Positions 135 to 46,706 are shown, counted from the stretch's first letter. The stretch is DNA of 64,000 nt from a bacterium (GCA_037137535.1 JBAXKC010000001.1:280584-344583); one strand, 5' to 3'. Notes: generated from the letters alone by a model not told the origin. Program-made: numbers and translations.

Positions 135-422
135 CTAGTAGGAATTTGAATAGCAAGATTTACATAATACAGGTCTGTCGCTTGATGGTTTGAAAGGAAC
201 TTGAGCAGCTCCACCACAATCGGAACATACAGCATCGTACATTCTTTTTTGTTGGAATCCACCAGCACTTCTTCCGCCACCTTTTCTAGCGCTACGGCAA
301 GGCTTACATCTTTTTGGTTGGTTTGTTAAACCTTTTGATTCGTAAAATTCTTGCTCGCTTACTGTGAAATCAAATTCACAACCACAGTCTGCACATTGTA
401 AAGTAATGTCTTGATACGCCAT
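135..422 (-). CDS. Small zinc-ribbon protein (zf-trcl-like + CxxC-x17-CxxC domain)
   Basis: CADC...CKPC and CSDC-x17-CKSC motifs; F-T-x-x-EQ-x-FY-x-x-KG signature; AGGAGG SD upstream. Confidence 0.9.
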   Translation of the reverse strand: MAYQDITLQCADCGCEFDFTVSEQEFYESKGLTNQPKRCKPCRSARKGGGRSAGGFQQKRMYDAVCSDCGGAAQVPFKPSSDRPVLCKSCYSNSY

Positions 423-814: not shown

Positions 815-2473
815 TTAAAATTTAAATTTTAATCCTGCTTGAGCCGAATAATCACCGTTGTCTAAAACATATGATAAGTTAGCATATGGATTTAATCCGT
901 TATCTTTATTTCCTGATAATTCAAGATCAAATTGTGGTGTTACGTTGCGTCCTGACTCAAGAGGTATATTTACAGCTACTCCCGCATTAACATTCACATC
1001 AGGAATACTTAAGTTAGGATATTTTGCTCTGTCCTCAACAGGAATACCAAAAGCATTATTATTGTAGAAAGCTCCTGCTCTTACATAAGGGGTATTACTA
1101 AATCCTGTTGTTTGACCTATAACTCCAAGATCTTTTGAAATTTGAGAACCATCATTAAATTTAGCAACTAAAGAACCTGATGTTTGAGTGTTATAAGGGT
1201 TATTTAAATTCAAACCAAGCCCTAATCCTAATCCATATCTTTCATTAGTAGTCGGATTGTTTTTATCGTCAAAAAGTTTATTTCCAATGTTTAAATTTGC
1301 TTGTAAAACTGCTTCACCTCTTGCAGGAGTTGTATCCACAGATAAACCTGTTCCAATTGAGCCATCATTATTTAGCTTTTCAGTTCTAAATGAAATAGCA
1401 GGATCTGTTGGCAATAATTGATTATTTGTTGAAAGTCCTAATCCTGTATTAACTATAATTCCTTCTTTTGTTTTTGGATCAACAGGTGCGTTTGTTAGGG
1501 TGCTTGCGACAGGAGAACCAAGCCTTTTATTTGAAGTAACTAAACTTATTTGAGGCTGTTCCGGAGGAGTAGGTTTATCTTCGGGCTTTGTAGGCTCTAC
1601 CGGTTTAGGATCTACGGGTTTTGTTGCGTCTGGAGTATCATAAGAACTGCTTAAGAGTTCCATTACGTTTTGATTTGTAATTTCTTTTCCATTTACATTT
1701 CCACAAAAATTCCAATGTCCAAAAGCTTCATCTTTTAATACTTGGACAGAATCACCATTTGGCATAAAGATAGCATACATTGTTTCATTATCTCTTTTTA
1801 TTCTTGCTCCGTTAGGGAAAGATATTTCTTGCCCCGGCTGAATATCTTTACCATCAACCTTTAATGTATTTGAGCCTTCATTTATTTGAATATTATTTCC
1901 GCCGATTTTTATATTGCCGCTTGTTATGCCTTCATTTCCATTTGGCAATTTTCTTACGTTTACATCGATTGAATAATCTTTATCGCCTAAGTTTTCAGCA
2001 TTAGCATCATGGTTTACAAAATTTGTAGGCTTATTTAGAGTTGATACATCTGAAACTAGACCTGTTGCATCATTATTTCCTTTTACGGTCAAAAGATTTA
2101 AATTTTCATATAATCCTTTTGGAATATCAACAGTAGTCTTGTCATGAGTTGCATTAGGGTCGCTACCTGATCCCCAGAAGAAACCCGGTAACTTTGTTGT
2201 TGTAGGCTGAGAGACTGACTTTATATCTGTACTAAAATGTCTTGCTGCATTTGCAGCTTCTACTGTTTTTTCAAAATCCGCAAAACCACTTTTAAAATCA
2301 GTGCTATTCATCAAGTTCTCTAAAGAATTTGCAGGAATATTAATACCATCCTTTTTCCAGATACTTGCCTGATCAGCCACAGCCTTTTTCTCAGCTCCGG
2401 GAACAAGTCCGGTGTTTAAAGTTACAGGTGCCTTACCTACGAGCTGACTAGCCTGATTAATGAATTCTCCCAT
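815..2473 (-). CDS. Orphan protein: beta-rich (VWD-like) domain, Pro-rich linker, putative C-terminal beta-barrel
   Basis: Long ORF; likely start MGEFINQ at 2473 (AAGGAG SD) rather than 2551; PVDPKPVEPTKPEDKPTPPEQP linker; alternating amphipathic strands ending YSAQAGLKFKF. Confidence 0.7.
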   Translation of the reverse strand: MGEFINQASQLVGKAPVTLNTGLVPGAEKKAVADQASIWKKDGINIPANSLENLMNSTDFKSGFADFEKTVEAANAARHFSTDIKSVSQPTTTKLPGFFWGSGSDPNATHDKTTVDIPKGLYENLNLLTVKGNNDATGLVSDVSTLNKPTNFVNHDANAENLGDKDYSIDVNVRKLPNGNEGITSGNIKIGGNNIQINEGSNTLKVDGKDIQPGQEISFPNGARIKRDNETMYAIFMPNGDSVQVLKDEAFGHWNFCGNVNGKEITNQNVMELLSSSYDTPDATKPVDPKPVEPTKPEDKPTPPEQPQISLVTSNKRLGSPVASTLTNAPVDPKTKEGIIVNTGLGLSTNNQLLPTDPAISFRTEKLNNDGSIGTGLSVDTTPARGEAVLQANLNIGNKLFDDKNNPTTNERYGLGLGLGLNLNNPYNTQTSGSLVAKFNDGSQISKDLGVIGQTTGFSNTPYVRAGAFYNNNAFGIPVEDRAKYPNLSIPDVNVNAGVAVNIPLESGRNVTPQFDLELSGNKDNGLNPYANLSYVLDNGDYSAQAGLKFKF

Positions 2474-2894
2474 CTTAATACTCCTTTTATAAATTTTACA
2501 TTTTAAATATTTCGTATATATTTCGTATATATTTATAAAAACATTTCGCATGAAAAAATTGCCTGTTAAAAGCCAATATTCATGTTTTTACCATAATTTT
2601 TATAAGAAAATACTACTAAACACTTTAATTACAGACCATTTGACAAATCTAAAGTTTTGTAACATTTGCTTGCGAATTATTAATTTTTTAGTCAAATAAA
2701 GAAATACCTCTTTATTGTTTGTTTTTTTATAATAAAGCATTAAAATTTAATTAAAATCAAACAATTAATTAAGTTTTAATCTATTTCAATAACCTTAGAG
2801 ATTAAAATTCAGTTTAAAAACAAAAAAATAATGCTCTATCAATTAAGAACATATTTTATTCCCCAAAATATATTTATTTTATTTAATCTAAGAA

Positions 2895-2923
2895 TTGACC
2901 AATGACAATAAATTCTCTATAAT
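2895..2923 (+). promoter_or_regulatory. Sigma70 promoter of the pilin/tail-collar operon
   Basis: TTGACC(2895-2900)-N17-TATAAT(2918-2923). Confidence 0.7.
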
Positions 2924-3039
2924 GAGATATATAGTTGAATCTACATGAATCAAACAAAAGAAATCACAATAAAATCACCATAACATCAGAAACTGACTTT
3001 CAAAAATTGTAATATTGTAAAAAAATAGGGCTGGATTGT

Positions 3040-3924
3040 TTGAAAATTAAAAATAAAAAATTATATTTTAAGACTGGCTTAACTCTTGTAGAGTCTTTAT
3101 TTGTTATGGTAATAATGAGTACAGTTTTAATATCCAGTATTCCTATTTTTGCCAATAAAAAAATACTTAGAACAGACACTCCAAATATTGGAATTGTGGC
3201 AATTTGGGCAAACCCCGGAGCCATTCCTTCAAACTTTCTTGAATGTAACGGACAAGCATATAACGTAGCTGACTATCCTGATTTATTCAACATTATTGGA
3301 ACGTCCTACGGTGGAGCAGGCTCAACTTTTAATGTCCCAAACTTACAGGGAAGAACTGCAATAGGAGCAGGAACTGGAGCTGGACTTACAAATAAAGTAT
3401 ATCAAACAACAGTAGGCTCTGAGGAAGAAAGTCTTACATTAGCTCAACTTCCAAACCATGTTCATATCTTTAACGACCCTGGACACAAACACTGGGACTC
3501 AGGACATGCTCATGGAACAAGCGACCCTGGACACAAACACTGGGACTACGGACATTCTCACACTTTATGGGATGGCTGGCACAGTCATTATTATAGAGAT
3601 GTTTATTATTCTGAGTTTGGCTCAACTCCTGTCCCATGGGACATAGGAACAAATGCCAGAAGTGATTATGACAATAAAGGTCTTGAAATTCGCAGAAATA
3701 CAAACTGGACCGGCTCGAATATCGGAATATATAATGGTTATGCAAATGTATCCTATCAAAGTAGCAATCTTGCCGCTTCTACTAATAACGGTAATGCTTC
3801 CATTCAATCAGCTCTAAGCAATGTAACCGTACCTGTAAGCGGTGGAAGTGGAACTGCAACAGGAAATCCTCATGAAAATATGCTTCCTTTTAGAGCTTTA
3901 AGATATATTATTAGAGCAAAATAA
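3040..3924 (+). CDS. Prepilin N-terminus + phage tail-collar/His-rich tail fibre protein (paralog 1)
   Basis: G|LTLVE..P22 prepilin motif; collar motif IPSNFLECNGQ..YPDLF..IG..YG..FNVPNLQGR; six HxH; C-terminal HENMLPFRALRYIIRAK. Confidence 0.88.
   Translation: MKIKNKKLYFKTGLTLVESLFVMVIMSTVLISSIPIFANKKILRTDTPNIGIVAIWANPGAIPSNFLECNGQAYNVADYPDLFNIIGTSYGGAGSTFNVPNLQGRTAIGAGTGAGLTNKVYQTTVGSEEESLTLAQLPNHVHIFNDPGHKHWDSGHAHGTSDPGHKHWDYGHSHTLWDGWHSHYYRDVYYSEFGSTPVPWDIGTNARSDYDNKGLEIRRNTNWTGSNIGIYNGYANVSYQSSNLAASTNNGNASIQSALSNVTVPVSGGSGTATGNPHENMLPFRALRYIIRAK
3474..3547 (+). repeat. 26-bp perfect intragenic direct repeat (48-nt period)
   Basis: cgaccctggacacaaacactgggact at 3474-3499 and 3522-3547 (DPGHKHWD twice). 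Confidence 0.9.
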
Positions 3925-3965
3925 TAACTGATTAATAATTACGTTTCATAAGAAAAGAGGCTGGA

Positions 3966-4943
3966 TTGACAAGAAATCTTAATACTAAAAAATCACTTAA
4001 ATTTCCAAGAAATGGTTTAACTATTTCAGAAGTATTAGTTGTTATGGTTTTATTTGGTGTTATTGCTGTTTCTTCTATACCTGCTTTTACTTCTAATGAA
4101 ACTCAAAACAGAGATTTAATAGCAAGTATTGGAAGTATTATGCTATGGGCAGGTAATGGAAATCCTCCGCCTAATTTTGTTGAATGTAATGGACAATCAC
4201 TCAACAAAGCTGATTATCCACTATTATTTGGTGTTATCGGAAATACCTACGGTTCTACAGCAACAAAATTCAACGTTCCTGACATAAGAGGCAGAGCCGT
4301 AATAGGGGCAGGACAGGGAACAGACCCAAGTCCCTATTCAGGAGTAAGCCCAAACCTGACTCTTAGAAATTTTAAAGATATAGGCGGAACTGAAACTGTC
4401 ACTCTTACAGCCGCTGATTTGCCTAATCATGCTCATGGAGTAACAGATCCCGGACATACTCATTCAGATGCGGGGCATGCCCATTCGGTTGCAGACTATG
4501 GACATTCTCATGTTGATTGGGGGCATGTTCACTCAGTATGGGATGGCGGACATTCTCATTACTATGATGATATTTATTATGCAGAAAGTATGGGTTATGC
4601 TAAATGGATATCAGGTGGTGGAGCAAATCCACATGGATATAATCACCCAAGCCCTAACGGACCTTTTGTTGGTAATGGACAAGGAGATTGGACAGACTTT
4701 GACAATGGCGGACATGATATGGGACGTTGGACAAATGCTTCACCTTCGAATTTAGCTCTTTATCCAGGCTATGCAAACCTTACCTATAATGGAACAAATG
4801 TAACCTTTGGGACAGGCTATGCTAATCTTACCTCTAATTCGGCAAACCTCACAATAGTTCCCAGCGGAGGAAGTAATCCGGTTACTCCGCATAATAATTT
4901 GTCAGCTGCTCTTGTATTAAAATATGTAATTAAAGCCCGATAA
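3966..4943 (+). CDS. Prepilin N-terminus + phage tail-collar/His-rich tail fibre protein (paralog 2)
   Basis: G|LTISE..P22; PPNFVECNGQ..YPLLF..IG..YG..FNVPDIRGR; six HxH; ends LKYVIKAR. Confidence 0.88.
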   Translation: MTRNLNTKKSLKFPRNGLTISEVLVVMVLFGVIAVSSIPAFTSNETQNRDLIASIGSIMLWAGNGNPPPNFVECNGQSLNKADYPLLFGVIGNTYGSTATKFNVPDIRGRAVIGAGQGTDPSPYSGVSPNLTLRNFKDIGGTETVTLTAADLPNHAHGVTDPGHTHSDAGHAHSVADYGHSHVDWGHVHSVWDGGHSHYYDDIYYAESMGYAKWISGGGANPHGYNHPSPNGPFVGNGQGDWTDFDNGGHDMGRWTNASPSNLALYPGYANLTYNGTNVTFGTGYANLTSNSANLTIVPSGGSNPVTPHNNLSAALVLKYVIKAR

Positions 4944-4973
4944 AACATAATACGCTTATAGAAAGAGGACAGG

Positions 4974-5864
4974 ATGTTAAATTCTTTAAAAATTAAAAAT
5001 AAGAATAAAAGATTTGGACTATCTCTTACAGAAGCGTTAGTTGTTTTAATGGTTGCAGGTGTTGCAGTTGCTGCCTCTATGCCAACAATGTCGGTAAAGA
5101 CATTACTTAAAACTAATTCAGATGTAAGTATAGGTGCTATTGTAATATGGGCAAACAATGGAGCTATTCCTGCTAATTACCTTGAATGTAACGGCCAAAC
5201 CGTAAACAAAGCAGATTATATAAACTTATACAGTATTATTAGCGGTACTTATGGACAAACGGCAACTCAATTCAATGTTCCCGATTTAAGAGGCAGGACT
5301 GTTATTGGAATGGGAAAAATAAGTGCCTTGAGCAAACAACGTAATTTTAATGATGTGGGTGGTAAAGAAAAAGTAAGACTTATTGATACAAATTTACCTG
5401 CTCATTCCCATATAGTTAACGACCCGGGTCATACTCATGCAGACCTCGGGCATACTCATCCTGTTTATGATCCGGGGCATAAACACTGGGATTATGGTCA
5501 TAGCCATGGAGTATGGGATGGTGGACATAGCCATGAATATGGCGATATATATTTTTCAGAATCATGGGGCTGGGTTCCGACACCTGATGGTTTTGGACAC
5601 TGTGCTAAAAGCGATAATGACAACTATGGTTTTCAAATGGGACGCTATACTGATCTAGCCACAAGTAATATTGGTGTTTATCCTGGTAATGCAAATTTCA
5701 CAACAGAACATACAGGTGTTTCAGCTGCTACAGGTACGGCAAATCTTGGCAATTCAGTCACAGGTGTTAACTTAAACGCACCTGCAACAGGTGGCGACGA
5801 TAATAATCTTCATGAAAATATGCCGCCGTTTTACACATTGAGATATATCATTAGAGCAAGATAA
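4974..5864 (+). CDS. Prepilin N-terminus + phage tail-collar/His-rich tail fibre protein (paralog 3)
   Basis: G|LSLTE..P22; IPANYLECNGQ..FNVPDLRGR; six HxH; ends HENMPPFYTLRYIIRAR. Confidence 0.88.
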   Translation: MLNSLKIKNKNKRFGLSLTEALVVLMVAGVAVAASMPTMSVKTLLKTNSDVSIGAIVIWANNGAIPANYLECNGQTVNKADYINLYSIISGTYGQTATQFNVPDLRGRTVIGMGKISALSKQRNFNDVGGKEKVRLIDTNLPAHSHIVNDPGHTHADLGHTHPVYDPGHKHWDYGHSHGVWDGGHSHEYGDIYFSESWGWVPTPDGFGHCAKSDNDNYGFQMGRYTDLATSNIGVYPGNANFTTEHTGVSAATGTANLGNSVTGVNLNAPATGGDDNNLHENMPPFYTLRYIIRAR

Positions 5865-5888
5865 CTAATTTTTTATATTAAATATATT

Positions 5889-5925
5889 AAAAGAGCTGTT
5901 AAACTTAAAAATTAACAGCTCTTTT
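5889..5925. terminator. Bidirectional terminator
   Basis: aaaagagctgttaa / ttaacagctctttt 14-bp inverted repeat between convergent genes. Confidence 0.85.
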
Positions 5926-5949
5926 TGATAAATAATATAATAATGCCTT

Positions 5950-6543
5950 TTAATGCTTTTCCAACTCATTTTTTATAGCCTTTAACGTTGTAGGCAAGGT
6001 GTTGTTAAGCCCATAAGAACGTAAAAAAGACGGTAAATAGAAACCAAGATCAATATACATTGTATAGGTTAATATAGAATTACCCTGATACGGTTCGATT
6101 TCCCAAGATCCGTATAATTCTTTAAAAGAACCTTCAGTTCTTTTATATATAATTGTTTTAGTTCTTTCATTTTCATCTAAATGCAATGTATATTGAAATA
6201 CGGGTAAAGCAGGAGCTGTTTTAAGTGAAACCTGCACCTTTTGGAAATTATGTCCTTTTGCAAGAATTTTATTTTGACGAACCCCAGGGACTATTCGCCC
6301 CATTCTTTCCTGATTTTCAAGTAAAGCCCATACTTTTTCAGGTGATGAATGAATTAATACTTTTCCTTCAGTTCCTTTTAAATCACCCTTGCAATTAAAA
6401 AATCTTAAAGCGACTTCACCCTTTTGCAATCTTGTAATATTTTCTATTGCCATTGCTTTATTTGGAAATTGCATTGAGAAAATCAAGGATGGGATAATAA
6501 TAAGACTCATAAGTCCGTAATGTAGTTTGAGTTTTGTATTCAT
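5950..6543 (-). CDS. SRPBCC (polyketide cyclase/START-like) family protein with N-terminal signal/TM
   Basis: IHSSPEKVWALL...GSFKELYGSWEIEP pattern. Confidence 0.75.
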   Translation of the reverse strand: MNTKLKLHYGLMSLIIIPSLIFSMQFPNKAMAIENITRLQKGEVALRFFNCKGDLKGTEGKVLIHSSPEKVWALLENQERMGRIVPGVRQNKILAKGHNFQKVQVSLKTAPALPVFQYTLHLDENERTKTIIYKRTEGSFKELYGSWEIEPYQGNSILTYTMYIDLGFYLPSFLRSYGLNNTLPTTLKAIKNELEKH

Positions 6544-6625
6544 ATTTAACCTAGCGTTTTAATAATCTTAAACTACTAGGTTATTGTAAACACTTTTTAT
6601 AGTCAACAAATAATACACTACAAAC

Positions 6626-7510
6626 TTAACAATTATCTATTTTCTTATAATTTGTTAATATCCAACTTTTTGACTTAATTTTTTCCTGTAGAATCAAATC
6701 TTGTGTTGTTAAAAACTCGATATATCTAGGATTTTTAGGATTAAGATCTTTAAATTTACAGGGATGAATAAGCATTTCAGTAATACAATTTTTGTCTTTA
6801 ATACTGTTTAAGCCTGATTCAATAGTTTGTGAGTCCATAAACCCTGTATAAGCTACACCGATTATGTAATCATTTGTTTTAACACCATATTGAGCAGCAG
6901 TTTTATGATTTATTGCTGATAAATGATTAAGCAGAGCCACTTTTATAGTATTTAAAGGATACCAGAGGTTTAAATGCTTTTGCAGTTGCGGGACTACATA
7001 AGGTTTTTCATATTGAGTCCTTACGTAAGTAATATTATATTCTTTAGCAAGTTTACATGTAATTTCAAATATTGGGGGAATAGCATGGATATGAACATGT
7101 GAATTCAAATGATCGACTTCAACTTGAGAAAGAATAAGTTCTATTTGATTTCTGAAGTCGTGTTCAATTTCTAGCAATAATTTTTTATTTTTTGATTTTG
7201 CAAGAAGAGAATGAAAACTATTTTGATAAGTTCCATCTGAAGAACATAATAACGAAGAAGCAGAATAATTTTTCAGAGTTGTTTTGCCTTCCATTATATT
7301 TAAGTGAACGCCAAGCCCCATCTCCTCACATTCAGGAAGCACTTCTTTTATAGCATGCTCAAAAGCCTCTCCATTTGCACAAAGACATGCACTTGTGAGA
7401 AAACCTTCTTTATATCCAATTTTTACGCCTTCGTTAAAATCTTTATTTATACCAAAATCATCAGCATTAAAAATAAGTAATTTTTTATTGCCCGAACTCT
7501 CCAACTTCAT
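6626..7510 (-). CDS. ChbG/HpnK/YdjC family carbohydrate deacetylase
   Basis: LIFNADDFG, GLGVHLN, DHLNSHVHIH, EMLIHP motifs. Confidence 0.9.
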   Translation of the reverse strand: MKLESSGNKKLLIFNADDFGINKDFNEGVKIGYKEGFLTSACLCANGEAFEHAIKEVLPECEEMGLGVHLNIMEGKTTLKNYSASSLLCSSDGTYQNSFHSLLAKSKNKKLLLEIEHDFRNQIELILSQVEVDHLNSHVHIHAIPPIFEITCKLAKEYNITYVRTQYEKPYVVPQLQKHLNLWYPLNTIKVALLNHLSAINHKTAAQYGVKTNDYIIGVAYTGFMDSQTIESGLNSIKDKNCITEMLIHPCKFKDLNPKNPRYIEFLTTQDLILQEKIKSKSWILTNYKKIDNC

Positions 7511-7646
7511 TTATAATGCTCCAAAATAAGTTTATTAAACTACTTTTATAACTAGGGAATAATTTATTCTTATATTAAACTCAGACTCATTATATTATAA
7601 TAATTGTAGATTGTAATAATTTTTAAATTAATAAAATGGTGGATAT

Positions 7647-8600
7647 ATGCAAAATCCTATTTTGGCGATAGTTATTCCATGTTTTAACGAACAGGATTTA
7701 ATAAAAAGCACGATTAACAGTTTACTTTGTAAAATTAAAGAACTGTCAAATTCAAATATCATAAGTGATGAAAGTTTTTTATATTTTATAGATGATGGTA
7801 GTCACGATGAAACGTGGAATATTTTGCAAAAATCCAACCAAGAAAATTCTAAAGTAAAAGCACTTAAACTTTCAAGAAACTTTGGAAATCAAAATGCTTT
7901 ACTAGCAGGACTTTTAGGAGTTCAGGCGCTTAATCCCGATTGTGTAATAACAATGGATGCCGACCTTCAGCAGGATGAAAACAGTATTAAAGAATTCATA
8001 GAAAAATACAAAAACGGTGCGGATATTGTCTGCGGAATAAGAAAAGACAACGAAACTTATTCAATTTTCAAAAATTGCACTTCAGTTTTATTCTATAAAT
8101 TAATGAACTTAATGGGGGCAAAAATTGCTGAAAATCATTCTGATTACAGGTTGATAAACAAAAAAGTCCTTAATGTATTAGCCGAATACAAAGAAGTAAA
8201 TTTATTTCTTAGAGGAATTTTTAACGAATTAGGCTTTAAAACAGAACATGTTTATTTTGATGTAAAACCCCGAGCAATAGGTCAATCAAAGTTTGGAATT
8301 TTAAAGCTGTTGTCGCTTGCGTTAAGCGGTATTACTTCCTTCAGTATAGTTCCATTAAGGATAGTCTCAGTTATAGGGTTATTAATGTCATTTTTTAGCT
8401 TTTTAATGGGAGTAGAGGTTATATACGAAAAAGTCTTTGGAACAGGAGTTATTCCTGGTTGGGCAACAATTGTAGTTGCTGTTTGCTTTATAGGCGGTGT
8501 TCAAATTTTCTGTACGGGTATTATCGGTGAATATTTAGGACAAGTCTACAAGGAAACAAAGGCAAGACCTAGATATGTAAAAGATATTGAGCTTTTATAA
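7647..8600 (+). CDS. GT2 polyprenol-phosphate glycosyltransferase (GtrB/ArnC-like)
   Basis: IVIPCFNE, IDDGSHD, SRNFGNQNALLAGL, MDADLQ; two C-terminal TMs; GEYLGQVYKETKARPRY. Confidence 0.92.
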   Translation: MQNPILAIVIPCFNEQDLIKSTINSLLCKIKELSNSNIISDESFLYFIDDGSHDETWNILQKSNQENSKVKALKLSRNFGNQNALLAGLLGVQALNPDCVITMDADLQQDENSIKEFIEKYKNGADIVCGIRKDNETYSIFKNCTSVLFYKLMNLMGAKIAENHSDYRLINKKVLNVLAEYKEVNLFLRGIFNELGFKTEHVYFDVKPRAIGQSKFGILKLLSLALSGITSFSIVPLRIVSVIGLLMSFFSFLMGVEVIYEKVFGTGVIPGWATIVVAVCFIGGVQIFCTGIIGEYLGQVYKETKARPRYVKDIELL

Positions 8601-8620
8601 ATTATCTTACTTTTAATATT

Positions 8621-8658
8621 AAAAAAACAGCCTGTTTTAAAAAAATAGGCTGTTTTTT
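8621..8658. terminator. Bidirectional terminator
   Basis: aaaaaacagcct..aggctgtttttt hairpin between convergent genes. Confidence 0.8.
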
Positions 8659-8672
8659 ATAGTTACTTAATT

Positions 8673-10376
8673 TTAATCGGAAATTATTTCTGACAATAAA
8701 GAATATTTTTTTCCTTTATTTACTATCTTAAACTTAATATTTTTAGCAGTATCTTCAAGATTTTCTGTCTTTATAATTATTACGGAATTGACAGTTAAAT
8801 CTCTTTTTAATCTTTGATAATCGCAAGTTTTTATAAAATCAACTTGTTTTTCATAATAAAAAAGAGTGCTTGGTCTAACCCCAAAATCAAAAGTTATAAG
8901 TTTTTTATTATACTGTTTTGCAAACTTTGCATAACTTACAAGTTCATTCTCACCACCATTATAAATCATAGGAATTACATAATTTATTGAAATTAATAGA
9001 ATCCCGACCATAAATAAAAGCTGTGATGTGAATAAAAGAACTTTTTTATTAAAACGAATGAATATAAAGTTTGCAATAGCTGTAATAAGTGCTAATGCAA
9101 TAGTATAAGTTTTTAGAGGAGCTGAAAGAAATACAATTCCTTTATTATTAAGCACAGGCACTATAAAAATTGCAGCAACTCCTGCTAATAAAAGAATTAC
9201 GCTAAAAATACCTGTTGATATTTTAATTCCACTATTATTTTTGCCATTTTCAATAAATTGATACCAATAATAACCTGTTAATAAAGCTGCCGCAGGATAT
9301 AGAGGCAAGATATAAGTTGCAAGTTTTGTGCTTGATGCGCTGAAGAATAACATTACTAAAGCAAAATAACAAATCATAAGAACTAATAATTTTTCGGTTC
9401 TTTTTTCTTCGTTTACTGCAAAAATATCTTTTAATTTTGTATATAAGCTCAAAATATTATCTTTGGTGAGATGTTTAATTCCATTAATTGTACTAGCTAA
9501 AAAAGAACAAATCCATGGAAAAAATCCAACTGCAAAGACAGGAAGAAAGAAGTAAAGAGGAGCCTGTCTTCCTATTCCTTTTGAATCAATAAATCTTGAA
9601 AAATGCTGTTTTATTATATAATCATTAACAAAAGCCATTCCGTTTTTATGGAATATTGCTAAATGCCATGGAAGAGAAATTGTAAAAAATATGACAAAAC
9701 CAGGTAAAATATTTTCCGGCTTAAACATTTTTTTAAGATTACCAGTAATTGTAGCGACAAAACCCATAACCGCAAAAGGTAAAATCAATCCCGGTAGGCC
9801 TTTAGCTAAAACAGCCAAAGCACTAAAAAAATAAGCTGCCCACCAATAATACTTCTGATTTGACTCTTTGCAAAAATAAGTTAAAAATCCCGAATAAATT
9901 GAAGACATGATAAATGTAGAAAGAATCATATCAATTATTGCGACTCTTGCTAAAACCAAAAATTGTATACACGAAAGTAAAATCAACGCACTAATTAAAC
10001 CAAATACTCTTGATATAGTCTTTTTACCGAAGTAATAAGTATAAAACACTGCAAAGCTGGCTGTTAAAGCAATTGGAAATCTCGCAGTAAATTCCGAAAT
10101 TTTACCAAATAACATATAAGAAGAAGCAAGCATCCAAAAATACAAAGGTGGTTTTTCATAAAAAATATTAAAATTAAGATGCATTGTTATCCAGTCGGAT
10201 TTCTGCAATATTTCCCTTGCCATATCTGCATATCTTGTCTCATCAACGTCAATTAAAGGGTTTAATCCTAATTGATGAAATAGAAAAATATAACAAAAAA
10301 CAAAAAGACATAGGCAAGACATAATTTCTGCGTGCTTTTTGCAAAATATTATTAAACTATTTATTGTATTTTTCAA
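8673..10376 (-). CDS. ArnT/PMT-family (GT-C) membrane glycosyltransferase
   Basis: DVDETRYADMAREI, YEKPPLYFW, LAKG, STKLATYILP motifs; many TMs. Confidence 0.9.
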   Translation of the reverse strand: MKNTINSLIIFCKKHAEIMSCLCLFVFCYIFLFHQLGLNPLIDVDETRYADMAREILQKSDWITMHLNFNIFYEKPPLYFWMLASSYMLFGKISEFTARFPIALTASFAVFYTYYFGKKTISRVFGLISALILLSCIQFLVLARVAIIDMILSTFIMSSIYSGFLTYFCKESNQKYYWWAAYFFSALAVLAKGLPGLILPFAVMGFVATITGNLKKMFKPENILPGFVIFFTISLPWHLAIFHKNGMAFVNDYIIKQHFSRFIDSKGIGRQAPLYFFLPVFAVGFFPWICSFLASTINGIKHLTKDNILSLYTKLKDIFAVNEEKRTEKLLVLMICYFALVMLFFSASSTKLATYILPLYPAAALLTGYYWYQFIENGKNNSGIKISTGIFSVILLLAGVAAIFIVPVLNNKGIVFLSAPLKTYTIALALITAIANFIFIRFNKKVLLFTSQLLFMVGILLISINYVIPMIYNGGENELVSYAKFAKQYNKKLITFDFGVRPSTLFYYEKQVDFIKTCDYQRLKRDLTVNSVIIIKTENLEDTAKNIKFKIVNKGKKYSLLSEIISD

Positions 10377-10526
10377 AACGGTACTTCCTCCGAAAATATA
10401 ATTTATTGGCTTTTTTAAGTATAATTTAAGAAACTATATTAAATTATACTTAAAAAGAGCTTAGTTCTTTAGTAAAAAAAGTTTAAGTAAATTAATTGTT
10501 ATAAGTTAAAATCACGAGGAAGTAAC

Positions 10527-10913
10527 TTGAAAAAAATTTTATCTCAATATTACAGATATATAATTGCAGGTTTTTTAGTTGTAGCTATAGACTTCGTTAT
10601 TTTGGCTTTTTTGACAGATTTTATTCATGTATATTACTTAATATCGGCTTGTTGTGCTTATATATTTGCCTCTGTAATTCATTATTTCATAAGTACAAAT
10701 TATATTTTTGACGAAAGCTCCATAAAAAATAAATACCATGAATTTTTAATATTTTTCGGCCTGGGGGCTATAGGATTAATATTATTTGAAATACTTATGT
10801 ATCTTTTCACAGATTATTTGGGCATCTATTATCTTGCTTCAAAAATAATAGTTTCAGGAATTATGTTTACTTTTAATTTTGCAACAAGAAAATTAATTTT
10901 ATTCCGAAATTAA
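10527..10913 (+). CDS. GtrA-family lipid-linked sugar translocase
   Basis: 128 aa, four TMs, ends FNFATRKLILF. Confidence 0.88.
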   Translation: MKKILSQYYRYIIAGFLVVAIDFVILAFLTDFIHVYYLISACCAYIFASVIHYFISTNYIFDESSIKNKYHEFLIFFGLGAIGLILFEILMYLFTDYLGIYYLASKIIVSGIMFTFNFATRKLILFRN

Positions 10914-15826: not shown

Positions 15827-15850
15827 TAGTATGGTTTTAAACCCTACCTA
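15827..15850. repeat. REP-like palindrome, degenerate copy 3
   Basis: tagtatggttttaaaccctaccta; reverse complement gtagggtttaaaaccatacta resembles copy 1. Confidence 0.45.
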
Positions 15851-16990
15851 TGGGCTCTTTATGTTTAATAAAACTAAATTCTTAATATAATTATCTTGTG
15901 ACTTTTCAGCATATTTAACAGATTTTTCATCTATTTTTGCACCAGAATTTATAAGACATTCAACAATTTCTGCTTGCTTTGTTTTTATAGCATAAGTTAA
16001 AGCAGTCTTCCCCCAATATATTACATTAGGATCAGCACCTTTATTAATTAATAATTCTGCTATTTCAGACTGTTTATTAATAATAGCCCAAATTAATGGA
16101 TAAGTCCCCACCGATTTTTGATTAGGATTAGCACCGGCCTCAATTAACATTTCTGCTATTTCGGATTGTTTATTCTTAATTGCTAGGGTTAAAAAATATG
16201 GCCCCCAATCTTGTTGATTAGGATTAGCGCCTGCTTTTAATAAAACATCAACCATTCTAAGATTATTTGCTTTTATTGCCATTCCAAGTAATGAATTAAA
16301 ACCATAAGTGTCATTTGGATTCATTCCTGTTTTCATATAAGCTTCAACTAAATCAACATCATTATTTTGAACACAATTAACAATATCTATGTCTTTATAT
16401 TTGGCATGCTGATAATCGACGAGACTTTGATAATATTTATCATCTTTTACAATATTAGCAGCAGAGGACTTGATTGTTTTCAAATGATCATTAACTAAAA
16501 ACTGAAACGCCACAAGAGGATTTATGTATATCTTTGATAAAAATAATACTCTTGTCGTATCTTTGGCACCGATTAAATAATTAGACGGAAACGGCTGAAA
16601 TAATTTATCAAGAGCAATAACCTTTCCTTCTAGATAAGCAAATGATACCGCGTTTATAAGCAAATCATTTGGGCTATTATAAAACATAAGAGTTGATGTT
16701 GTCACCTTATTTATTCTATCAGGAGCCGTCATTTCTTTTAATATAATAGGCTTTCCAGTTTTGTTTGTTATTAGATACTCATATATAGCAGCCTTCTTAT
16801 CTTGAATCATTCCGAAGCCAGGCTCATATTTATTGCTAGTAATTTTTATGTTATTGTCTTCAAATTCAAGTACAGTATTACCAATTGCTGTATTTGATAT
16901 AGGTTTTTCATATGACTGAAAGCTACTTTGAGCGAAAGATGGGCTAGATAATACAACAACAGCAATAAAGACTAAAAATAATTTTTTCAT
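15848..16990 (-). CDS. Exported ankyrin-repeat protein
   Basis: Signal peptide (SFA|Q); about five repeats of L..AI.......V..LI..GA(N/D)PN. Confidence 0.88.
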   Translation of the reverse strand: MKKLFLVFIAVVVLSSPSFAQSSFQSYEKPISNTAIGNTVLEFEDNNIKITSNKYEPGFGMIQDKKAAIYEYLITNKTGKPIILKEMTAPDRINKVTTSTLMFYNSPNDLLINAVSFAYLEGKVIALDKLFQPFPSNYLIGAKDTTRVLFLSKIYINPLVAFQFLVNDHLKTIKSSAANIVKDDKYYQSLVDYQHAKYKDIDIVNCVQNNDVDLVEAYMKTGMNPNDTYGFNSLLGMAIKANNLRMVDVLLKAGANPNQQDWGPYFLTLAIKNKQSEIAEMLIEAGANPNQKSVGTYPLIWAIINKQSEIAELLINKGADPNVIYWGKTALTYAIKTKQAEIVECLINSGAKIDEKSVKYAEKSQDNYIKNLVLLNIKSP

Positions 16991-19490: not shown

Positions 19491-20810
19491 TTATCTTACA
19501 CTCATACCTTCGTTAAGATATTTAATTAGAGGATAGATAAAGAACTCAATAATTCTACGTTTTCCTGTTTTAATTTCGGCGGTAAGACTCATACCGGAGG
19601 AAATACCCATTCTTTTTCCTTCAACTTTAAATTCTTTTTTCTCAGGAACGATATAAACCTCATAAACAGGGCCTAATGTCTTATCATCAATACTATCTTT
19701 TGCTATTTGAGTAACTTTTCCACCTAAAAGGCCATATTTTTGGAAGTCAAAAGTATCAACTTTAATACTTACGTCCATGTTTTTACGAATAAACCCTATA
19801 TCCTTGTTTAAAACAGTTGCTTTAATTAATAAAGGTGAATTACTGGGATACATTGAGATTAATTTCTGTGCAGGTGTTACAACACCGCCTTTTGTATGAA
19901 CAAAAAGCTCATTAATATAACCATCATCAGGAGCAGTAAGAACTTGTTTTTTATTTCTATATGCAGATTGATCTAATTGAGCTTTTAACTGAATCGATTG
20001 TTTTGTCTTATCTGCAAGTTCTTTTAATAACTCCGAACGGAAATTTTGACGAAGATAGCCCATTTCTTGAACAATTTGTCTTTTTTGCTGACTTAATTCC
20101 GATACTTTATAATTTGAACTTTGTATATTTGCCGTATTAGTTGTAATCTCATCAGCAACCTTGTCATAATCATCTTTAGGAATAATATCAATAATCGGCT
20201 TTAATCGTTTTTCTTTTGAACTGGCCGTCCCTAAAAGTTTTCTATATTGATATTTTTGAGAAACAGCAGTTCTTATTTGCTCGTCTGTTTTACTTAATTC
20301 AGTATGTTTAGCGGCAAGTTGACTGCTTATACTTTCCCTTAAGGAGTTATAAACATCTTCCTGTTCGATAATATCATTTAAATCATATTTTTTAAATGAT
20401 GGAGTAAATGCTCTACCCTCTGTAAGTGCTTTTAGTCTTTCAATTTCAAGAGAGATATATTTGTAGCTTTTTTCAAGCGATGTAAGTTCTGTTTTTGTTG
20501 TAGAAGGATCAATATCAATAACAGGTTGACCTTTTTTTACAAAATCGCCTTCTCTTACATGAATAGTTCCAACTACACCTGAATCAAGCGGCTGTATTAC
20601 CTTTATTTCACCGTCAGGAATTACTTTACCTCTGGCACTAACAACAATATCAATTTGCCCTACAGACGTCCAGATTATAAAGAAAAATATTATAGTTACA
20701 ACAATCCAAAAGACAAAACGACCTAATGGACTGACGGGTTCATCCTCTATTTCAGCAATAGCGGGTTTGAATTGATAGCTGTCATCTTTTGAAAAGATTT
20801 TTTTTAACAT
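19491..20810 (-). CDS. HlyD-family type I secretion membrane fusion protein
   Basis: N-terminal TM, coiled coil, GMSLTAEIKTGKRRIIEFFIYP C-terminus. Confidence 0.95.
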   Translation of the reverse strand: MLKKIFSKDDSYQFKPAIAEIEDEPVSPLGRFVFWIVVTIIFFFIIWTSVGQIDIVVSARGKVIPDGEIKVIQPLDSGVVGTIHVREGDFVKKGQPVIDIDPSTTKTELTSLEKSYKYISLEIERLKALTEGRAFTPSFKKYDLNDIIEQEDVYNSLRESISSQLAAKHTELSKTDEQIRTAVSQKYQYRKLLGTASSKEKRLKPIIDIIPKDDYDKVADEITTNTANIQSSNYKVSELSQQKRQIVQEMGYLRQNFRSELLKELADKTKQSIQLKAQLDQSAYRNKKQVLTAPDDGYINELFVHTKGGVVTPAQKLISMYPSNSPLLIKATVLNKDIGFIRKNMDVSIKVDTFDFQKYGLLGGKVTQIAKDSIDDKTLGPVYEVYIVPEKKEFKVEGKRMGISSGMSLTAEIKTGKRRIIEFFIYPLIKYLNEGMSVR

Positions 20811-22912
20811 TCATCGCTCTCCTGCTGGGTATAAAGATGATGGTAATAACCTTGGGCTTTCAGTAACTCATCATGAGAACCAGCTTCTATAATTTTACCT
20901 TTATCCATTGCGATAATAATATCACAATCTTTGACGGTAAACAGTCTATGCGCAATTATCAGAGTAGTTCTACCTTTTTTAATTCGGCTCATATTATTTT
21001 GAATAATTTTTTCAGATTCATAATCCAGTGCTGAGGTTGCCTCATCAAAAATCAATATCTTAGGGTTAGTAATAATAGCTCTTGCAATTGCAACTCTTTG
21101 ACGTTGTCCACCGGAAAGAGTTGAACCTCTTTCTCCTACAAGTGTATCATATCCTTCAGGCAATTGCGAAATAAACTCATGAGCTCCTGCGATTCTTGCA
21201 GCCTCAATAATTACTTCCATAGGTGCTCCCGGACGAGCTAATGAAATATTTTCTCTTATAGTTCCGCTGAACAGGTAATTATCTTGTAACACAATTCCCA
21301 TGTTATTTCTTAACCATAAAGGGTTCATATGCTTAATATCTACGTCGTCAACATAGATAGCACCTTCATTTGTAAGATAAAGTCTTTGAATTAACTTAGT
21401 AACAGTACTTTTACCGCTACCACTTCTTCCTACAAGACCAACGGACATACCGGGCTGTACGGTAAAGCAAACTCTATCAAGGATATAAGGGGAACTCATA
21501 TTGTATTTAAAACATACATTATCAAAACGAATGGATCCCTTAACATCATGGAGGGTAATTGCTTTATCCGTTTGAATTTCCACAGGGTTATTTAAAATAT
21601 CACCAAGTCTATCAACTGCAAGTAACGTTTGTTGAAATTCATTCCATAAGTTTACAAGCCTTAAAACAGGGTTAGTAAACTGATTCGCAAACATTTGAAA
21701 TGCGATTAACTGACCGATTGTTAATTTATTCTCGATAACAAGCCTTACACCTATGTAAAGTACGAAAATAGTCATTAATTTTTGCAATCCACTTGAAGTA
21801 GCACCTGTTACAGTTGCCATATTAGAAAGATTGAAACTTGATCTTACATAGTTTGAAAGATAATCTTCCCATTTCTTTTGCATAGTTCCTTCTATGGATA
21901 GAGATTTAATGGTTTGAATACCTGTTACAGACTCAACAAGATAAGAATTTGATTGAGCTGCCATTTGAAACTTATCATTAAGTCTTTTTCTAAGTTCAGG
22001 TGTAATAGTTACATAAATTACAGCGACCATAGAAATAAATGCTAATACGATAAATGTAAGTTTAACGCTGTACAAGAACATTACCGCAACAAAAACAAGT
22101 GAGAAAAATAAATCAATAATTAGAGAAACTGACTTGTTTGTAATAAATTCCCTGATAGAATCAAGCTCTCGAACTCTTGCGATAATATTTCCTACTTTTC
22201 TGTTTTCAAAATATACAAATGGAAGCGAGAATAAGTGCTTGAAAAGTTTTGCTCCTAATTTCGCATCAATTTTATTTGAAGTATGTATGAAAATATAATT
22301 TCTGGAAAGATTTAATAGGAATTCAAAAACGGTTACAGCAACGAAAGCAACTGCAAGCACATCAAGTGTTGTCAAACTGCGATGTACAATAACTTTATCG
22401 AGAATTACCTGAGTGAACAATGGTGTTATAAGTCCAAAAAGCTGAACAATAAAAGAACCTAACAATACTTCAGCTATAACTGTTTTATAGCGCATAATTT
22501 CATTATAAAACCAGATGAAACCAAAAGTGATCTTAGCTTGATTAACCTTTGGCTTTAATATAATAAAACGACCAGAACCTTCTTCGGCTAAAGCTTGAAA
22601 GGTTAACTCTTTTGATATTCTTTCAATAGTGTCAAAAATAAGAACCTTTTTATGCTCACTATTCAAACTTAAAATAATTTTATAATTTTTTTCTTTAGTT
22701 ATATAAATAGCAGGTAATGGATATTTTTCCAGCTGTTCCATAGTAATAGATTTGAACTTAGCTTTAAATCCATTATTTTGCATTATTCTAAGTAAATCGT
22801 AGTCAAGAATCTCGTTTTCATTTAAGCCATATTCTTTTATAATGGCTTGAATGTCGACATCAATTTGATTTATTCTTGCAACAACTTCAAAAGCTATTAG
22901 CCCAGTTTGCAT
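20804..22912 (-). CDS. HlyB-family type I secretion ABC transporter with C39-like domain
   Basis: GRSGSGKST Walker A, LSGGQRQR, DEATSALD; PLFTQVILDKV TMD. Confidence 0.95.
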   Translation of the reverse strand: MQTGLIAFEVVARINQIDVDIQAIIKEYGLNENEILDYDLLRIMQNNGFKAKFKSITMEQLEKYPLPAIYITKEKNYKIILSLNSEHKKVLIFDTIERISKELTFQALAEEGSGRFIILKPKVNQAKITFGFIWFYNEIMRYKTVIAEVLLGSFIVQLFGLITPLFTQVILDKVIVHRSLTTLDVLAVAFVAVTVFEFLLNLSRNYIFIHTSNKIDAKLGAKLFKHLFSLPFVYFENRKVGNIIARVRELDSIREFITNKSVSLIIDLFFSLVFVAVMFLYSVKLTFIVLAFISMVAVIYVTITPELRKRLNDKFQMAAQSNSYLVESVTGIQTIKSLSIEGTMQKKWEDYLSNYVRSSFNLSNMATVTGATSSGLQKLMTIFVLYIGVRLVIENKLTIGQLIAFQMFANQFTNPVLRLVNLWNEFQQTLLAVDRLGDILNNPVEIQTDKAITLHDVKGSIRFDNVCFKYNMSSPYILDRVCFTVQPGMSVGLVGRSGSGKSTVTKLIQRLYLTNEGAIYVDDVDIKHMNPLWLRNNMGIVLQDNYLFSGTIRENISLARPGAPMEVIIEAARIAGAHEFISQLPEGYDTLVGERGSTLSGGQRQRVAIARAIITNPKILIFDEATSALDYESEKIIQNNMSRIKKGRTTLIIAHRLFTVKDCDIIIAMDKGKIIEAGSHDELLKAQGYYHHLYTQQESDEC

Positions 22913-23007
22913 CTTTTACCCTTTAAATAACTTGTAGTAGATAGATTATAGCTATAAATTTGTTTTTTGCAAATCAACCTACAAGAGGAGTTATTTACAA
23001 AATTAAT

Positions 23008-24318
23008 TTATAACGTCTGAGCAAGAGCCTGAATTTTCTTAGCAGCTGCAACTTTTCTTATAATAGATTCTTCCAACTGTGATTTTAAATCTAATAATTC
23101 TGTCTCAATTTGGAATAATAATTCTTTTTCAACCATATTTTCACCGGAAAGTCTTTCAATCATAGAAAGTTTTTGATTAACATTTCCTAATAACTGTTGC
23201 TTACCTTTTAATTCTGCATCCATTGTAAAATAATCAACTTGTATGGATTTTAATTGATTTTTATATTGAGCAACTTTTTTGTTTTTTTCATTTTCAAGCT
23301 TTGCCAATTCAAGTCTTAATTTTTTTACATCATTCATATTTTCAAATCCATCAAATAAAGTCATTTGAGTGGAAAAGCCAAAGTTTAATGCTCTTTGTCT
23401 AATATTTTCAAGAGATTTCATGTAATTATTTTTATCATCTCCATAAAGGTTATATGAAGAGAATAATTGAAACTGAGGTAAGTATTTTTTCTTTGCAATT
23501 TCAATTTCATCCTTTTTTTTGTTTATTTCTAATTGAGCTTGTTGAAATTCAGGGGTTTTTTCCAAATTAACTACTGTAGTGGAAATATCAGGAATTTCTG
23601 CATAATCTTCAAGTTTTGTACTATCATTATACTCTTCATTTGTATAAAAAGACAATTTGTTTAAAGTGTTTTGTAATTTTGCCTGTTCTTTATTTATTTC
23701 ATCAATAGTTTTTGCCATATTAATAGCTGAGTCAGTAAGATCAATTTTTGAGATTTTACCTGCATTATATAGTTTTTCTTTTATTTTAAAAAGACCATTA
23801 TATGAGTTTAAAACAGCTTTTTTAGACGTAATAGTTTTATATGAAGACAAAGCTTCTGTATAAATATCAATTATATTTACGGTTAAATCTCTCTTTGTTT
23901 TAAATGCCTCAATACTTTTAATGGTCATATCCTTTTTAGCCATATTTAACTTACCTTTTCGTTGACCAAAATCATAAAGGTCATAATTCAAGCCTAAATA
24001 AGCTAAGTTTTGATATTGGATAGTACCAATAGTAGTCTGACCAACCGAAATTACACTGGCATTCTGACCTTGCAAATTTTTAGAATATTGGGAATTAAAT
24101 CCTGTTTGCAGTTTAGGGAAATAAGAGGACTTTGCCTTACCTATTTCCGCTTTGCTTATTCCGATATCCAGCTTAGCAGCTTTAATATCAAAAGAATTAC
24201 AGATGGCTTTGTCCAAAGTCTGCTCAAAACTTATTGACTCTGCCATCGTTGAATTTTGGCACAGACAATAAACTAAACCTATTATAAATGAGACAACCCC
24301 AGCCTTGAACTTTTTCAT
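23008..24318 (-). CDS. TolC-family outer membrane efflux protein
   Basis: Signal peptide; duplicated YFP.L / YLP.F and LYDFG / LFDGF motifs. Confidence 0.88.
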   Translation of the reverse strand: MKKFKAGVVSFIIGLVYCLCQNSTMAESISFEQTLDKAICNSFDIKAAKLDIGISKAEIGKAKSSYFPKLQTGFNSQYSKNLQGQNASVISVGQTTIGTIQYQNLAYLGLNYDLYDFGQRKGKLNMAKKDMTIKSIEAFKTKRDLTVNIIDIYTEALSSYKTITSKKAVLNSYNGLFKIKEKLYNAGKISKIDLTDSAINMAKTIDEINKEQAKLQNTLNKLSFYTNEEYNDSTKLEDYAEIPDISTTVVNLEKTPEFQQAQLEINKKKDEIEIAKKKYLPQFQLFSSYNLYGDDKNNYMKSLENIRQRALNFGFSTQMTLFDGFENMNDVKKLRLELAKLENEKNKKVAQYKNQLKSIQVDYFTMDAELKGKQQLLGNVNQKLSMIERLSGENMVEKELLFQIETELLDLKSQLEESIIRKVAAAKKIQALAQTL

Positions 24319-46620: not shown

Positions 46621-46706
46621 TTTTATTTTTATCCAGAGAAAAACTACCTACAAATTAAGCTCTAATGAATTATACTCTATAAATTAGAATAATTAAAGAT
46701 TTACAC

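Follow-up and report, generated by a model that had tools for sequence, protein, structure and literature searches.

Three tandem genes of a probable melainabacterium encode candidate headless, pilin-like tail-fiber adhesins

Could a cell carry the receptor-binding end of a phage tail fiber on its own type IV filaments? The question is raised by three tandem genes in a 64,000-nucleotide stretch of bacterial DNA (GCA_037137535.1, JBAXKC010000001.1:280584-344583; hereafter the window), each of which encodes a prepilin-like N-terminus followed by a Collar module related to phage tail fibers. An initial annotation of the window had read the genes as an operon of prepilin/tail-fiber chimeras in which a phage receptor-binding fiber takes the place of the globular pilin head. 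Here, we dissected the proteins, their genomic setting, and their relatives. We regard the chances as about even that the genes encode a trimeric fiber adhesin that is processed by the prepilin peptidase PilD and carried at the tip of a type IV filament.

All three proteins contain a Collar domain (PF07484) that scored far above its cutoff (62.6 to 66.2 bits against a cutoff of 24; Pfam E values of 1e-17 to 1e-18). Beyond it, the His-rich segment pointed out in the initial annotation resolved into six HxH motifs per protein, with a spacing of 9, 7, 9, 7, and 9 that is identical in the three paralogs; the segment is built from three tandem repeats of 16 residues (48 nt). HxH motifs bind metal in T4 gp37 and gp12, and this HxH needle may do the same. 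The 48-nt repeats were also visible in the DNA, at 3457-3552, 4444-4559, and 5403-5498, the two copies in paralog 1 being 79% identical. After the needle, conservation fell (3 to 6 identical columns per 20, versus 12 per 20 in the HxH block). The proteins then close with a conserved strand (...LRYIIRA(K/R)), a feature that had been noticed earlier and that turned out to be common to most database relatives.

The phage relationship of this portion was recovered by sequence, profile, and structure searches. The three paralogs matched 15, 18, and 20 tail-fiber/collar families in PHROGs, and tblastn against 50,697 phage records matched 353 of them. The best coverage was given by the tail fiber of Synechococcus phage S-CAM7 (paralog 3 residues 54-296; 30% identity; E value of 1e-15), followed by the long tail fiber of Anabaena phage A-1(L) (residues 39-273). 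Residues 1-38 were covered by none of the 15 phage matches listed; these matches begin at residue 39 or later, and the shoulder or shaft that docks such fibers to a baseplate is absent. When a profile from a 45-row alignment was searched against the PDB, the A-1(L) long tail fiber (8kec_A) was matched at an E value of 7e-43, the match covering profile positions 23-244 and thereby nearly all of the module. With only the three paralogs in the profile, 8kec_A (E value of 3e-10) and T4 gp12 (2e-8) were still matched, and a single paralog found gp12 only, over Collar (4e-6). The fold had thus been rightly likened to gp12 and gp37 in the initial annotation; the closest solved relative is, however, the arm of cyanophage A-1(L) gp34. 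In that protein (8KEC), residues 1-155 (the "shoulder") are described as docking the fiber to the baseplate and residues 156-379 (the gp37-like "arm") as binding the Anabaena surface, with the O-antigen of lipopolysaccharide (LPS) as the target of the fiber (PMC10966104). By sequence comparison, our three proteins correspond to the gp34 arm only, the baseplate anchor apparently having been exchanged for a prepilin-like N-terminus. The C-terminal ~245 residues, from about residue 50, can be assigned on solid homology grounds to a genuine phage tail-fiber receptor-binding module.

What precedes this module resembles the start of a type IV pilin. The leaders of paralogs 1, 2, and 3 are 13, 17, and 15 residues long, and each contains five Lys plus Arg, no Asp or Glu, and a terminal Gly. 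The mature proteins would begin with LTLVE, LTISE, and LSLTE, respectively, with Glu at position 5 and Pro at position 22 in all three, and the mean Kyte-Doolittle hydropathy over mature residues 1-21 is 2.0-2.4. The Lys-rich leader ending in Gly, Leu1, Glu5, the hydrophobic helix, and the Pro at +22 were therefore all present as originally described. Eight of the first 40 alignment columns of the paralogs are invariant, among them Gly(-1), Leu(+1), Glu(+5), and Pro(+22), and G(-1), E5, and P22 were kept in four of four divergent proteins (the three paralogs and the database representative P0130, taken up below). Position by position, the features that define a class III (prepilin) signal are thus all present, and a six-frame motif scan of the window returned only these three prepilin-like N-termini. 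Hidden Markov model (HMM) searches gave weak matches to the N-termini of ComGC, ComGD, ComGE, and GspG, and the three-paralog profile reached domain 1 of Geopilin, a helix-only pilin, in the PDB (7tgg_A; E value of 0.0098). A structure search of the ESM Atlas with residues 1-48 returned N_methyl pilin or pseudopilin clusters as all eight matches listed; with so short a helix as the query, we treat this as no more than a lead. We consider the prepilin identity of the N-terminus probable on this sequence evidence.

Between these two parts there appears to be no room for a pilin head. Collar follows the helix in all three paralogs, as stated initially, at a distance from Pro22 of ~15-16 residues rather than the "about 12" first given. 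Models from AlphaFold2 (AF2) of paralogs 3 and 2 (mean predicted local distance difference test score, pLDDT, of 69.0 and 67.4, respectively) agreed with each other. In both, a single helix at the N-terminus leads through a low-confidence linker to a confident Collar (pLDDT > 90); a low-confidence middle follows, and the C-terminus, which lies beside Collar, is again confident (pLDDT > 90). In paralog 3, the helix spans residues 18-35, and pLDDT exceeds 90 at residues 50-140 and at the C-terminal residues 280-296; in paralog 2, the helix spans residues 20-50, and the Collar residues with pLDDT > 90 are 55-120. Such a confidence pattern is what would be expected of a monomer model of an intertwined trimeric fiber. 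The top Foldseek matches for both models were 8kec, 1ocy and 5iv5 (T4 gp12), and 2xgf (the T4 gp37 tip), with E values of 5e-8 to 6e-5 and template modeling (TM) scores of only ~0.3, as would be expected for monomer models of an intertwined trimer. Neither the paralog 2 nor the paralog 3 model contains a globular pilin head, in which alpha1C would pack against an antiparallel beta-sheet; both run from helix through linker to Collar, in support of the earlier claim that the head is gone.

The genes are arranged as an operon (Table 1). Three plus-strand open reading frames (ORFs) lie exactly where tandem paralogs had been called; they share 44-47% pairwise identity and are separated by gaps of 41 and 30 nt, and paralog 2 carries two insertions (~10 and ~19 residues) relative to paralogs 1 and 3. 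The sigma-70-type promoter-like site upstream of paralog 1 matches 11 of 12 consensus positions and is tied for the best in the AT-rich region 2500-6600, where 23 such sites were observed versus 18.1 ± 3.9 in shuffled sequence. Because this count is close to the shuffle expectation, the site is a good consensus match only; of the "clear sigma70 promoter" proposed at first, the consensus stood, whereas function is not thereby supported. The proposed terminator fared better. Its hairpin (-20.1 kcal/mol; z = -6.38) was equaled in stability by 0 of 200 shuffles, and had been missed by our terminator scanner, which skips loops longer than 8 nt, because its loop is 9 nt. The hairpin also lies just past the end of a convergent gene (5950-6543, minus strand). 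An Rfam scan of the leader region (2500-3100) for a riboswitch or leader RNA matched no family, and a search for shufflon-type inversion repeats at the operon found short AT-rich inverted repeats only. The guanine-plus-cytosine (G+C) fraction of 4001-6000 is 0.38, versus 0.29-0.33 in the adjoining 2-kb bins, which could reflect Gly/His/Pro/Asp-rich coding or foreign origin.

Table 1. Features of the operon and the PilD-type gene, in window coordinates
Feature	Coordinates	Strand	Description
Promoter-like site, sigma-70 type	2895-2923	+	TTGACC, 17-nt spacer, TATAAT; 5' of paralog 1
Paralog 1	3040-3924	+	294 aa, TTG start
Paralog 1, leader	3040-3078		Residues 1-13
Paralog 1, alpha1N-like helix to Pro22	3079-3144		Residues 14-35
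Paralog 1, Collar	3190-3357		Residues 51-106
Paralog 1, HxH needle	3457-3588		Residues 140-183
Paralog 1, after HxH needle			Variable region, then C-terminal strand ...LRYIIRAK
Paralog 2	3966-4943	+	325 aa, TTG start
Paralog 2, leader	3966-4016		Residues 1-17
Paralog 2, alpha1N-like helix	4017-4082		Residues 18-39
Paralog 2, Collar	4131-4298		Residues 56-111
Paralog 2, HxH needle	4428-4559		Residues 155-198
Paralog 3	4974-5864	+	296 aa, ATG start
Paralog 3, leader	4974-5018		Residues 1-15
Paralog 3, alpha1N-like helix	5019-5084		Residues 16-37
Paralog 3, Collar	5133-5303		Residues 54-110
Paralog 3, HxH needle	5403-5534		Residues 144-187
Paralog 3, after HxH needle			Variable region, then C-terminal strand ...LRYIIRAR
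Intrinsic-terminator-like hairpin	5889-5925	+	14-bp stem, 9-nt loop, T-run
Prepilin peptidase/N-methyltransferase (PilD type)	24533-25567	-	A24_N_bact E 1.5e-32; Peptidase_A24 E 8e-14

The surroundings of the operon look like those of a cell rather than a phage. Capsid, sheath, baseplate, and integrase families were matched (E ≤ 1e-5) by 0 of 55 window ORFs (those of at least 100 aa plus a few shorter), in line with the absence of such genes reported at first. A PHROGs scan of 10 more unannotated window ORFs left nine without a match and gave one weak match to a family of unknown function, with no tail or head family among the results. The window also holds transporters, tryptophan and riboflavin genes, and two tRNAs (the only Rfam matches in the window), and it looks chromosomal. 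The PilD-type gene named in the initial annotation was confirmed by two domain matches (Table 1); the encoded protein looks intact, with visible CxxC...CxxC and GEGD motifs, which we take to be the hallmarks of PilD. On the same strand, this gene is flanked by an HlyD/ABC transporter/OEP-family efflux set (19491-24318) and by the gene for a sigma-70-family factor (25591-26397), and it is not part of a pilus operon.

The organism is probably a melainabacterium because, on the one marker used, the Tex protein, the best named relatives came from metagenome-assembled genomes of Melainabacteria/Gastranaerophilales (68-69% identity; other relatives reached up to 82%). For this group, pilA, pilB, pilC, pilT, and pilD have been reported in Candidatus Gastranaerophilus termiticola, and Vampirovibrio chlorellavorus is reported to have every gene that functional type IV pili require (PMC5877343 and PMC4451040, cited jointly). 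A chemotaxis and flagellar cluster (44524-53365, minus strand; MCP, CheR, CheB, FliN/CheC-like, FliM, FliL, MotB, and MotA) was also observed, and the organism is probably flagellated.

We propose that the operon would encode three headless pilin-like fiber adhesins in which a class III signal and the N-terminal pilin helix (alpha1N) stand in place of the phage baseplate anchor. Roughly 15 flexible residues would tie alpha1N to a complete arm, consisting of Collar, a putative metal-binding HxH needle, a variable distal region, and a C-terminal strand predicted to return to Collar. The hydrophobic helix would insert the proteins into the inner membrane, where PilD would cut after Gly and methylate Leu1, as the motif and the presence of PilD suggest. 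By homology to phage fibers, the fiber parts would trimerize in the periplasm. Three alpha1N helices on flexible linkers could then cap a type IV filament as its uppermost layer, in the manner of CofB and TcpB (discussed below), which would place one fiber at each pilus or pseudopilus tip. There, the variable distal region would bind a surface glycan, such as the LPS O-antigen, on another cell or surface, comparable to phage and virophage fibers. Every step of this scheme, from PilD processing through trimerization and metal binding to display at a filament tip and the choice of ligand, is inferred; what we observed are the genes, the order and homology of their domains, the missing pilin head, the PilD-type gene, and a window free of recognized phage genes.

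To place the fusion among its relatives, we searched sequence, structure, and literature databases. With 28,615 representatives at E ≤ 1e-3, Collar proteins make up a very large family, and its members are labeled "microcystin-dependent protein" or "tail fiber protein"; the closest relative outside the window in a word-index search reached an E value of 1e-26 only. Two of the database representatives listed carry a prepilin-type start. P0130 (251 aa) has the same headless layout, with a short basic leader that likewise ends in Gly, G/E5/P22, and an ECNGQ motif, and passes the PF07963 (N_methyl) threshold (21.4 versus 21.2 bits), and P0223 (896 aa) has a canonical prepilin start (GFTLIELAI) followed by fn3 and three Collar domains. 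In a quick maximum-likelihood tree of 45 rows, P0130 grouped with the three paralogs (support of 99 in the Shimodaira-Hasegawa-like approximate likelihood ratio test, SH-aLRT); the grouping of prepilin-Collar proteins therefore fits a single old fusion that has since been kept. The ESM Atlas held a 75-member cluster with Collar in 100% and N_methyl in 99% of members (score of 0.89; a lead only), as well as a 51-member cluster combining Gp10_C with N_methyl. A plasmid search returned 42 records with Collar-only matches, none of which covered at least 80% of the query.

Other architectures were seen among these relatives. Two very long proteins, P0121 (4832 aa; 23 fn3, 11 Collar, and 10 Gp10_C matched stretches) and P0144 (4616 aa; 13 fn3, 6 Collar, and 5 Gp10_C matched stretches), open with residues like those found midway along a pilin alpha1 helix, so that their real starts may have been lost. 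We note them as a lead only; they may be giant pilin-anchored multifiber proteins. Many cellular relatives, P0129 and P0160 among them, combine three Collar domains within a single chain, and some of these relatives have a PEP-CTERM anchor; such proteins may be one-chain versions of the trimer with another surface anchor.

We take IPR011083 to be the InterPro entry for the Collar domain, which is consistent with the architecture of P0223. Dataset S1 of Raynaud et al. (PMC8179133) lists 1,219 modular pilins in 264 architectures, among which IPR011083 is paired with the prepilin entry IPR012902 in only two architectures, each represented by a single protein, and is never found in the plain two-part form. 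A PilV-Collar fusion gene next to pilus operons has also been described (Milman et al., PMC9881135; UCP91044.1, locus CP084655). None of the publications listed by our literature search named both PF07484 and PF07963, and the search found no experimental characterization of any recorded pilin-Collar fusion. The prepilin-Collar architecture is thus on record but rare: the initial statement that it was not known to have been characterized holds insofar as no characterized case was found, although the architecture itself is recorded in UCP91044.1, Dataset S1, and the Atlas cluster. Because the prepilin motif falls below threshold in most models, an InterPro-type search would miss proteins of this kind.

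Several results weigh against a PilD-processed, filament-borne fiber. The HMMER check proposed in the initial annotation gave a split outcome, Collar exceeding its cutoff in all three proteins (see above) and N_methyl (PF07963) staying below its gathering score of 21.2 in all three (13.2, 19.8, and 14.7 bits); with TIGR02532, only paralog 2 passed the cutoff of 16.3 (12.2, 17.4, and 9.7). Residue +1 is Leu, whereas Phe or Met is usual, and sites resembling those of signal peptidase I can be read by eye after the helix (IFA|N and TMS|V). PilD lies ~19 kb from the operon, on the other strand and beside unrelated genes, and no other type IV pilus gene (ATPase, platform, secretin, or major pilin) was found in the 64 kb. 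The headless layout also leaves out the globular-domain contacts that help to hold subunits in known pili. Fibers of this class in phages often require chaperones (PMC9608196), and the operon has no evident chaperone gene. The fusion also has thin comparative support because almost all relatives lack a prepilin N-terminus. Such a start was present in 0 of the 117 word-index matches listed (the motif regular expression missed one of the three window paralogs in this check, and the printed N-termini were also read by eye). It was present in 2 of the 147 representatives listed (P0130 and P0223), with two more having an apparently incomplete start, and in 0 of 16 short relatives. A profile search of genome contigs with a four-row alignment found 53 stretches at 11 loci, none of which encoded the prepilin-Collar combination.

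Many of these observations would be accounted for if the N-terminus were an ordinary Sec signal or an uncleaved anchor and no PilD substrate, leaving periplasmic, inner-membrane, or secreted Collar proteins unrelated to type IV filaments. We consider this rather unlikely. The subthreshold N_methyl scores, the lack of pilus genes besides PilD in the window, and the small residues after the helix that could serve signal peptidase I all speak for it, as does the sheer size of the Collar family in cellular genomes, where many other anchors are used (such as the signal peptides and PEP-CTERM of P0129 and P0160). However, Glu +5 within a hydrophobic stretch, Gly -1, and Pro +22 are fixed across all four divergent proteins, which is not expected of Sec signals; the hydrophobic stretch, at ~21 residues, is longer than would be usual in a cleaved Sec signal; and P0130 passes PF07963. 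Moreover, a receptor-binding fiber tethered in the periplasm would have no obvious target in a diderm, and the window encodes an OEP-family outer-membrane efflux protein. The class III signal might instead be genuine, cut by PilD, and used for surface display or export on something other than a long filament, such as a short pseudopilus-like stub, a surface patch, or a pseudopilus tip of the type II secretion kind. The model for this case is the "bindosome" of archaea, whose sugar-binding proteins carry class III signals. The N-terminal evidence is the same as for a pilus tip, and the absence of a pilin head and of nearby pilus genes suits a noncanonical use of the signal; no result tells the two apart. 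Nevertheless, the closest precedents described, modular pilins and CofB, are filament borne, and we judge this alternative to be distinctly improbable.

Least probable by far, to the point of being nearly dismissed, is a prophage or tailocin remnant or cargo with a hydrophobic N-terminus arisen by chance. The strong phage-fiber homology (353 phage records) and the raised G+C fraction of 4001-6000 relative to its flanks could be read in this way. Against it, the scans of window ORFs described above found no phage structural or integrase family and no tail or head family. Each paralog keeps an uninterrupted reading frame, a ribosome-binding site of its own, and the motif set of the other two, and the three share one promoter-like site and one terminator. 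Finally, residues 1-38 were never covered in the 15 phage matches listed, and the part of the fiber that attaches to a baseplate is missing.

The products of the three genes could assemble into three homotrimers that differ in specificity or into a single 1:1:1 heterotrimer. Phage fibers of this class are homotrimers. The heterotrimer is nonetheless a serious possibility because the genes form one transcription unit and encode proteins of near-equal length with an identical HxH register. Three consecutive Collar/gp37-like genes of virophage DSLV2 are described as yielding proteins that copurify as a 1:1:1 heterotrimer (PMC12724248), a direct precedent for one fiber from three tandem paralogs. 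A heterotrimer would also be in keeping with the known tip complexes of pili, which are heteromeric. A structure prediction of the heterotrimer (residues 43-294 of paralog 1, 48-325 of paralog 2, and 46-296 of paralog 3, with a 45-row alignment for each) scored 0.25 against a mark of 0.32 and was run without controls, and so speaks neither for trimer formation nor against it. A further extension, which we offer as speculative and unlikely in its entirety, is that the three alpha1N helices of a 1:1:1 heterotrimer would form the priming or tip complex of the filament in place of the usual minor pilins. A cyanophage-derived module would then have been domesticated by a nonphotosynthetic relative of cyanobacteria, and LPS-type glycans of bacteria, cyanobacteria, or algae (prey, partner, or host) would be seized and pulled in by pilus retraction.

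Several neighboring genes were also recorded. Directly 3' of the operon lies a cluster (6626-10913) of YdjC-like, GT2, PMT_2 (membrane mannosyltransferase-like), and GtrA-family genes, which look like parts of a periplasmic lipid-linked glycosylation system. N-x-S/T sequons were not enriched overall in the fiber proteins (4, 9, and 1 versus ~4 expected), the count being marginal for paralog 2 only (48 of 2000 shuffles), and a link between the cluster and the operon is unsupported. On the other side, a divergent ORF (815-2551, minus strand) encodes a 578-aa protein with a Pro/Lys-rich linker and had no Pfam, NCBIfam, PHROG, or PDB sequence match; it ends in ...AGLKFKF, which to our eye resembles the ends of outer-membrane beta-barrel proteins. 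The window further encodes a 380-aa ankyrin-repeat protein (15848-16990, minus strand; Ank_2 E value of 1.9e-26) and a small protein of 95 aa (135-422, minus strand) with two treble-clef zinc-finger domains (zf_Tbcl, 2.5e-20; zf_Tbcl_2, 2.6e-17).

Taken together, the architecture suggests that the cell may mount borrowed phage fibers on its own pili to grip other surfaces. If the fibers are filament borne, a pilus subunit would be reducible to a signal and an assembly helix and would still present a large foreign trimeric module. Phage receptor-binding modules would likewise move onto cellular pili too, beyond phages and tailocins, with the same kind of target (surface glycans), and attachment by uncultured Melainabacteria to cells or surfaces would gain a concrete, testable handle. 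The combination of helix, linker, and trimeric fiber would also offer a compact template from nature for the display of binders on pili. If the N-terminus is a mere membrane anchor, these proteins would be ordinary members of a very large cellular Collar family.

Among known systems, the fiber part is closest to the A-1(L) gp34 arm (8KEC), the S-CAM7 fiber, the T4 gp37 tip, and gp12, all of which share Collar, the HxH needle, the distal region, and the C-terminal strand; the matches in sequence and fold extend across the entire extramembrane part of our proteins. Those proteins differ in having an N-terminal shoulder or shaft for the baseplate and are related to ours at ~30% identity only, and our operon lies in chromosomal DNA, with no phage genes found in the 64 kb. 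The DSLV2 tripartite tail proteins, which we liken by description only, are likewise three consecutive Collar/gp37-like paralogs related to Synechococcus phage fibers, and the DSLV2 fiber is reported to bind Synechococcus cells, with LPS as the proposed receptor; unlike our proteins, they are virion proteins, are shorter (~58 kDa per trimer), and are described with no prepilin N-terminus (PMC12724248). The mosaic adhesive trimer (MAT) fibers of Bdellovibrio are comparable as cell-encoded, phage-fiber-like trimeric surface adhesins that recognize the glycans of other bacteria, but they have a beta-helix or S74-type fold and, in the available text of that report, are not described as pilin anchored (PMC10769870).

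From the pilus side, the best model for a trimeric fiber on three alpha1N helices is, by analogy, that of CofB from the CFA/III pilus of enterotoxigenic Escherichia coli and TcpB from Vibrio cholerae. These proteins combine a pilin N-terminus, a flexible linker, and trimerizing C-terminal beta-rich domains. Their trimers are tip located, start assembly, and mediate adhesion, the CofB homotrimer being the initiator complex at the pilus tip (PMC6048534). CofB differs in that it carries an entire type IVb pilin domain together with an H-type lectin domain (PMC6048534), and a trimer of our proteins would be predicted from homology; none of our three PDB searches related the paralogs to CofB by sequence. 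Modular pilins are described as widespread and are thought to be tip located (PMC8179133). PilB of Streptococcus sanguinis, for example, has a class III signal and alpha1N followed by a nonpilin module thought to be exposed at the tip for adhesion; the additional module of PilB is attached to an entire small pilin fold, whereas the paralogs here are headless (PMC8179133 for PilB). Of the two marks of a modular pilin, the extra domain (Collar) is clear in our proteins, and the N-terminal IPR012902-type motif is subthreshold in most models. UCP91044.1 also joins a prepilin-type N-terminus and PF07484 in one chain but includes a PilV (Shufflon_N) domain and is a target of programmed inversion (PMC9881135), whereas no shufflon-like repeats were seen at our operon. 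The nearest likeness is P0130, which is headless, keeps G/E5/P22 and ECNGQ, and groups with the paralogs in the tree; P0223, in contrast, has ~115 residues and fn3 between its helix and three Collar domains in one chain. Our three proteins are set apart from known modular pilins by the lack of a head, the complete cyanophage-type arm, the presence of three tandem paralogs, and their occurrence in a probable melainabacterium.

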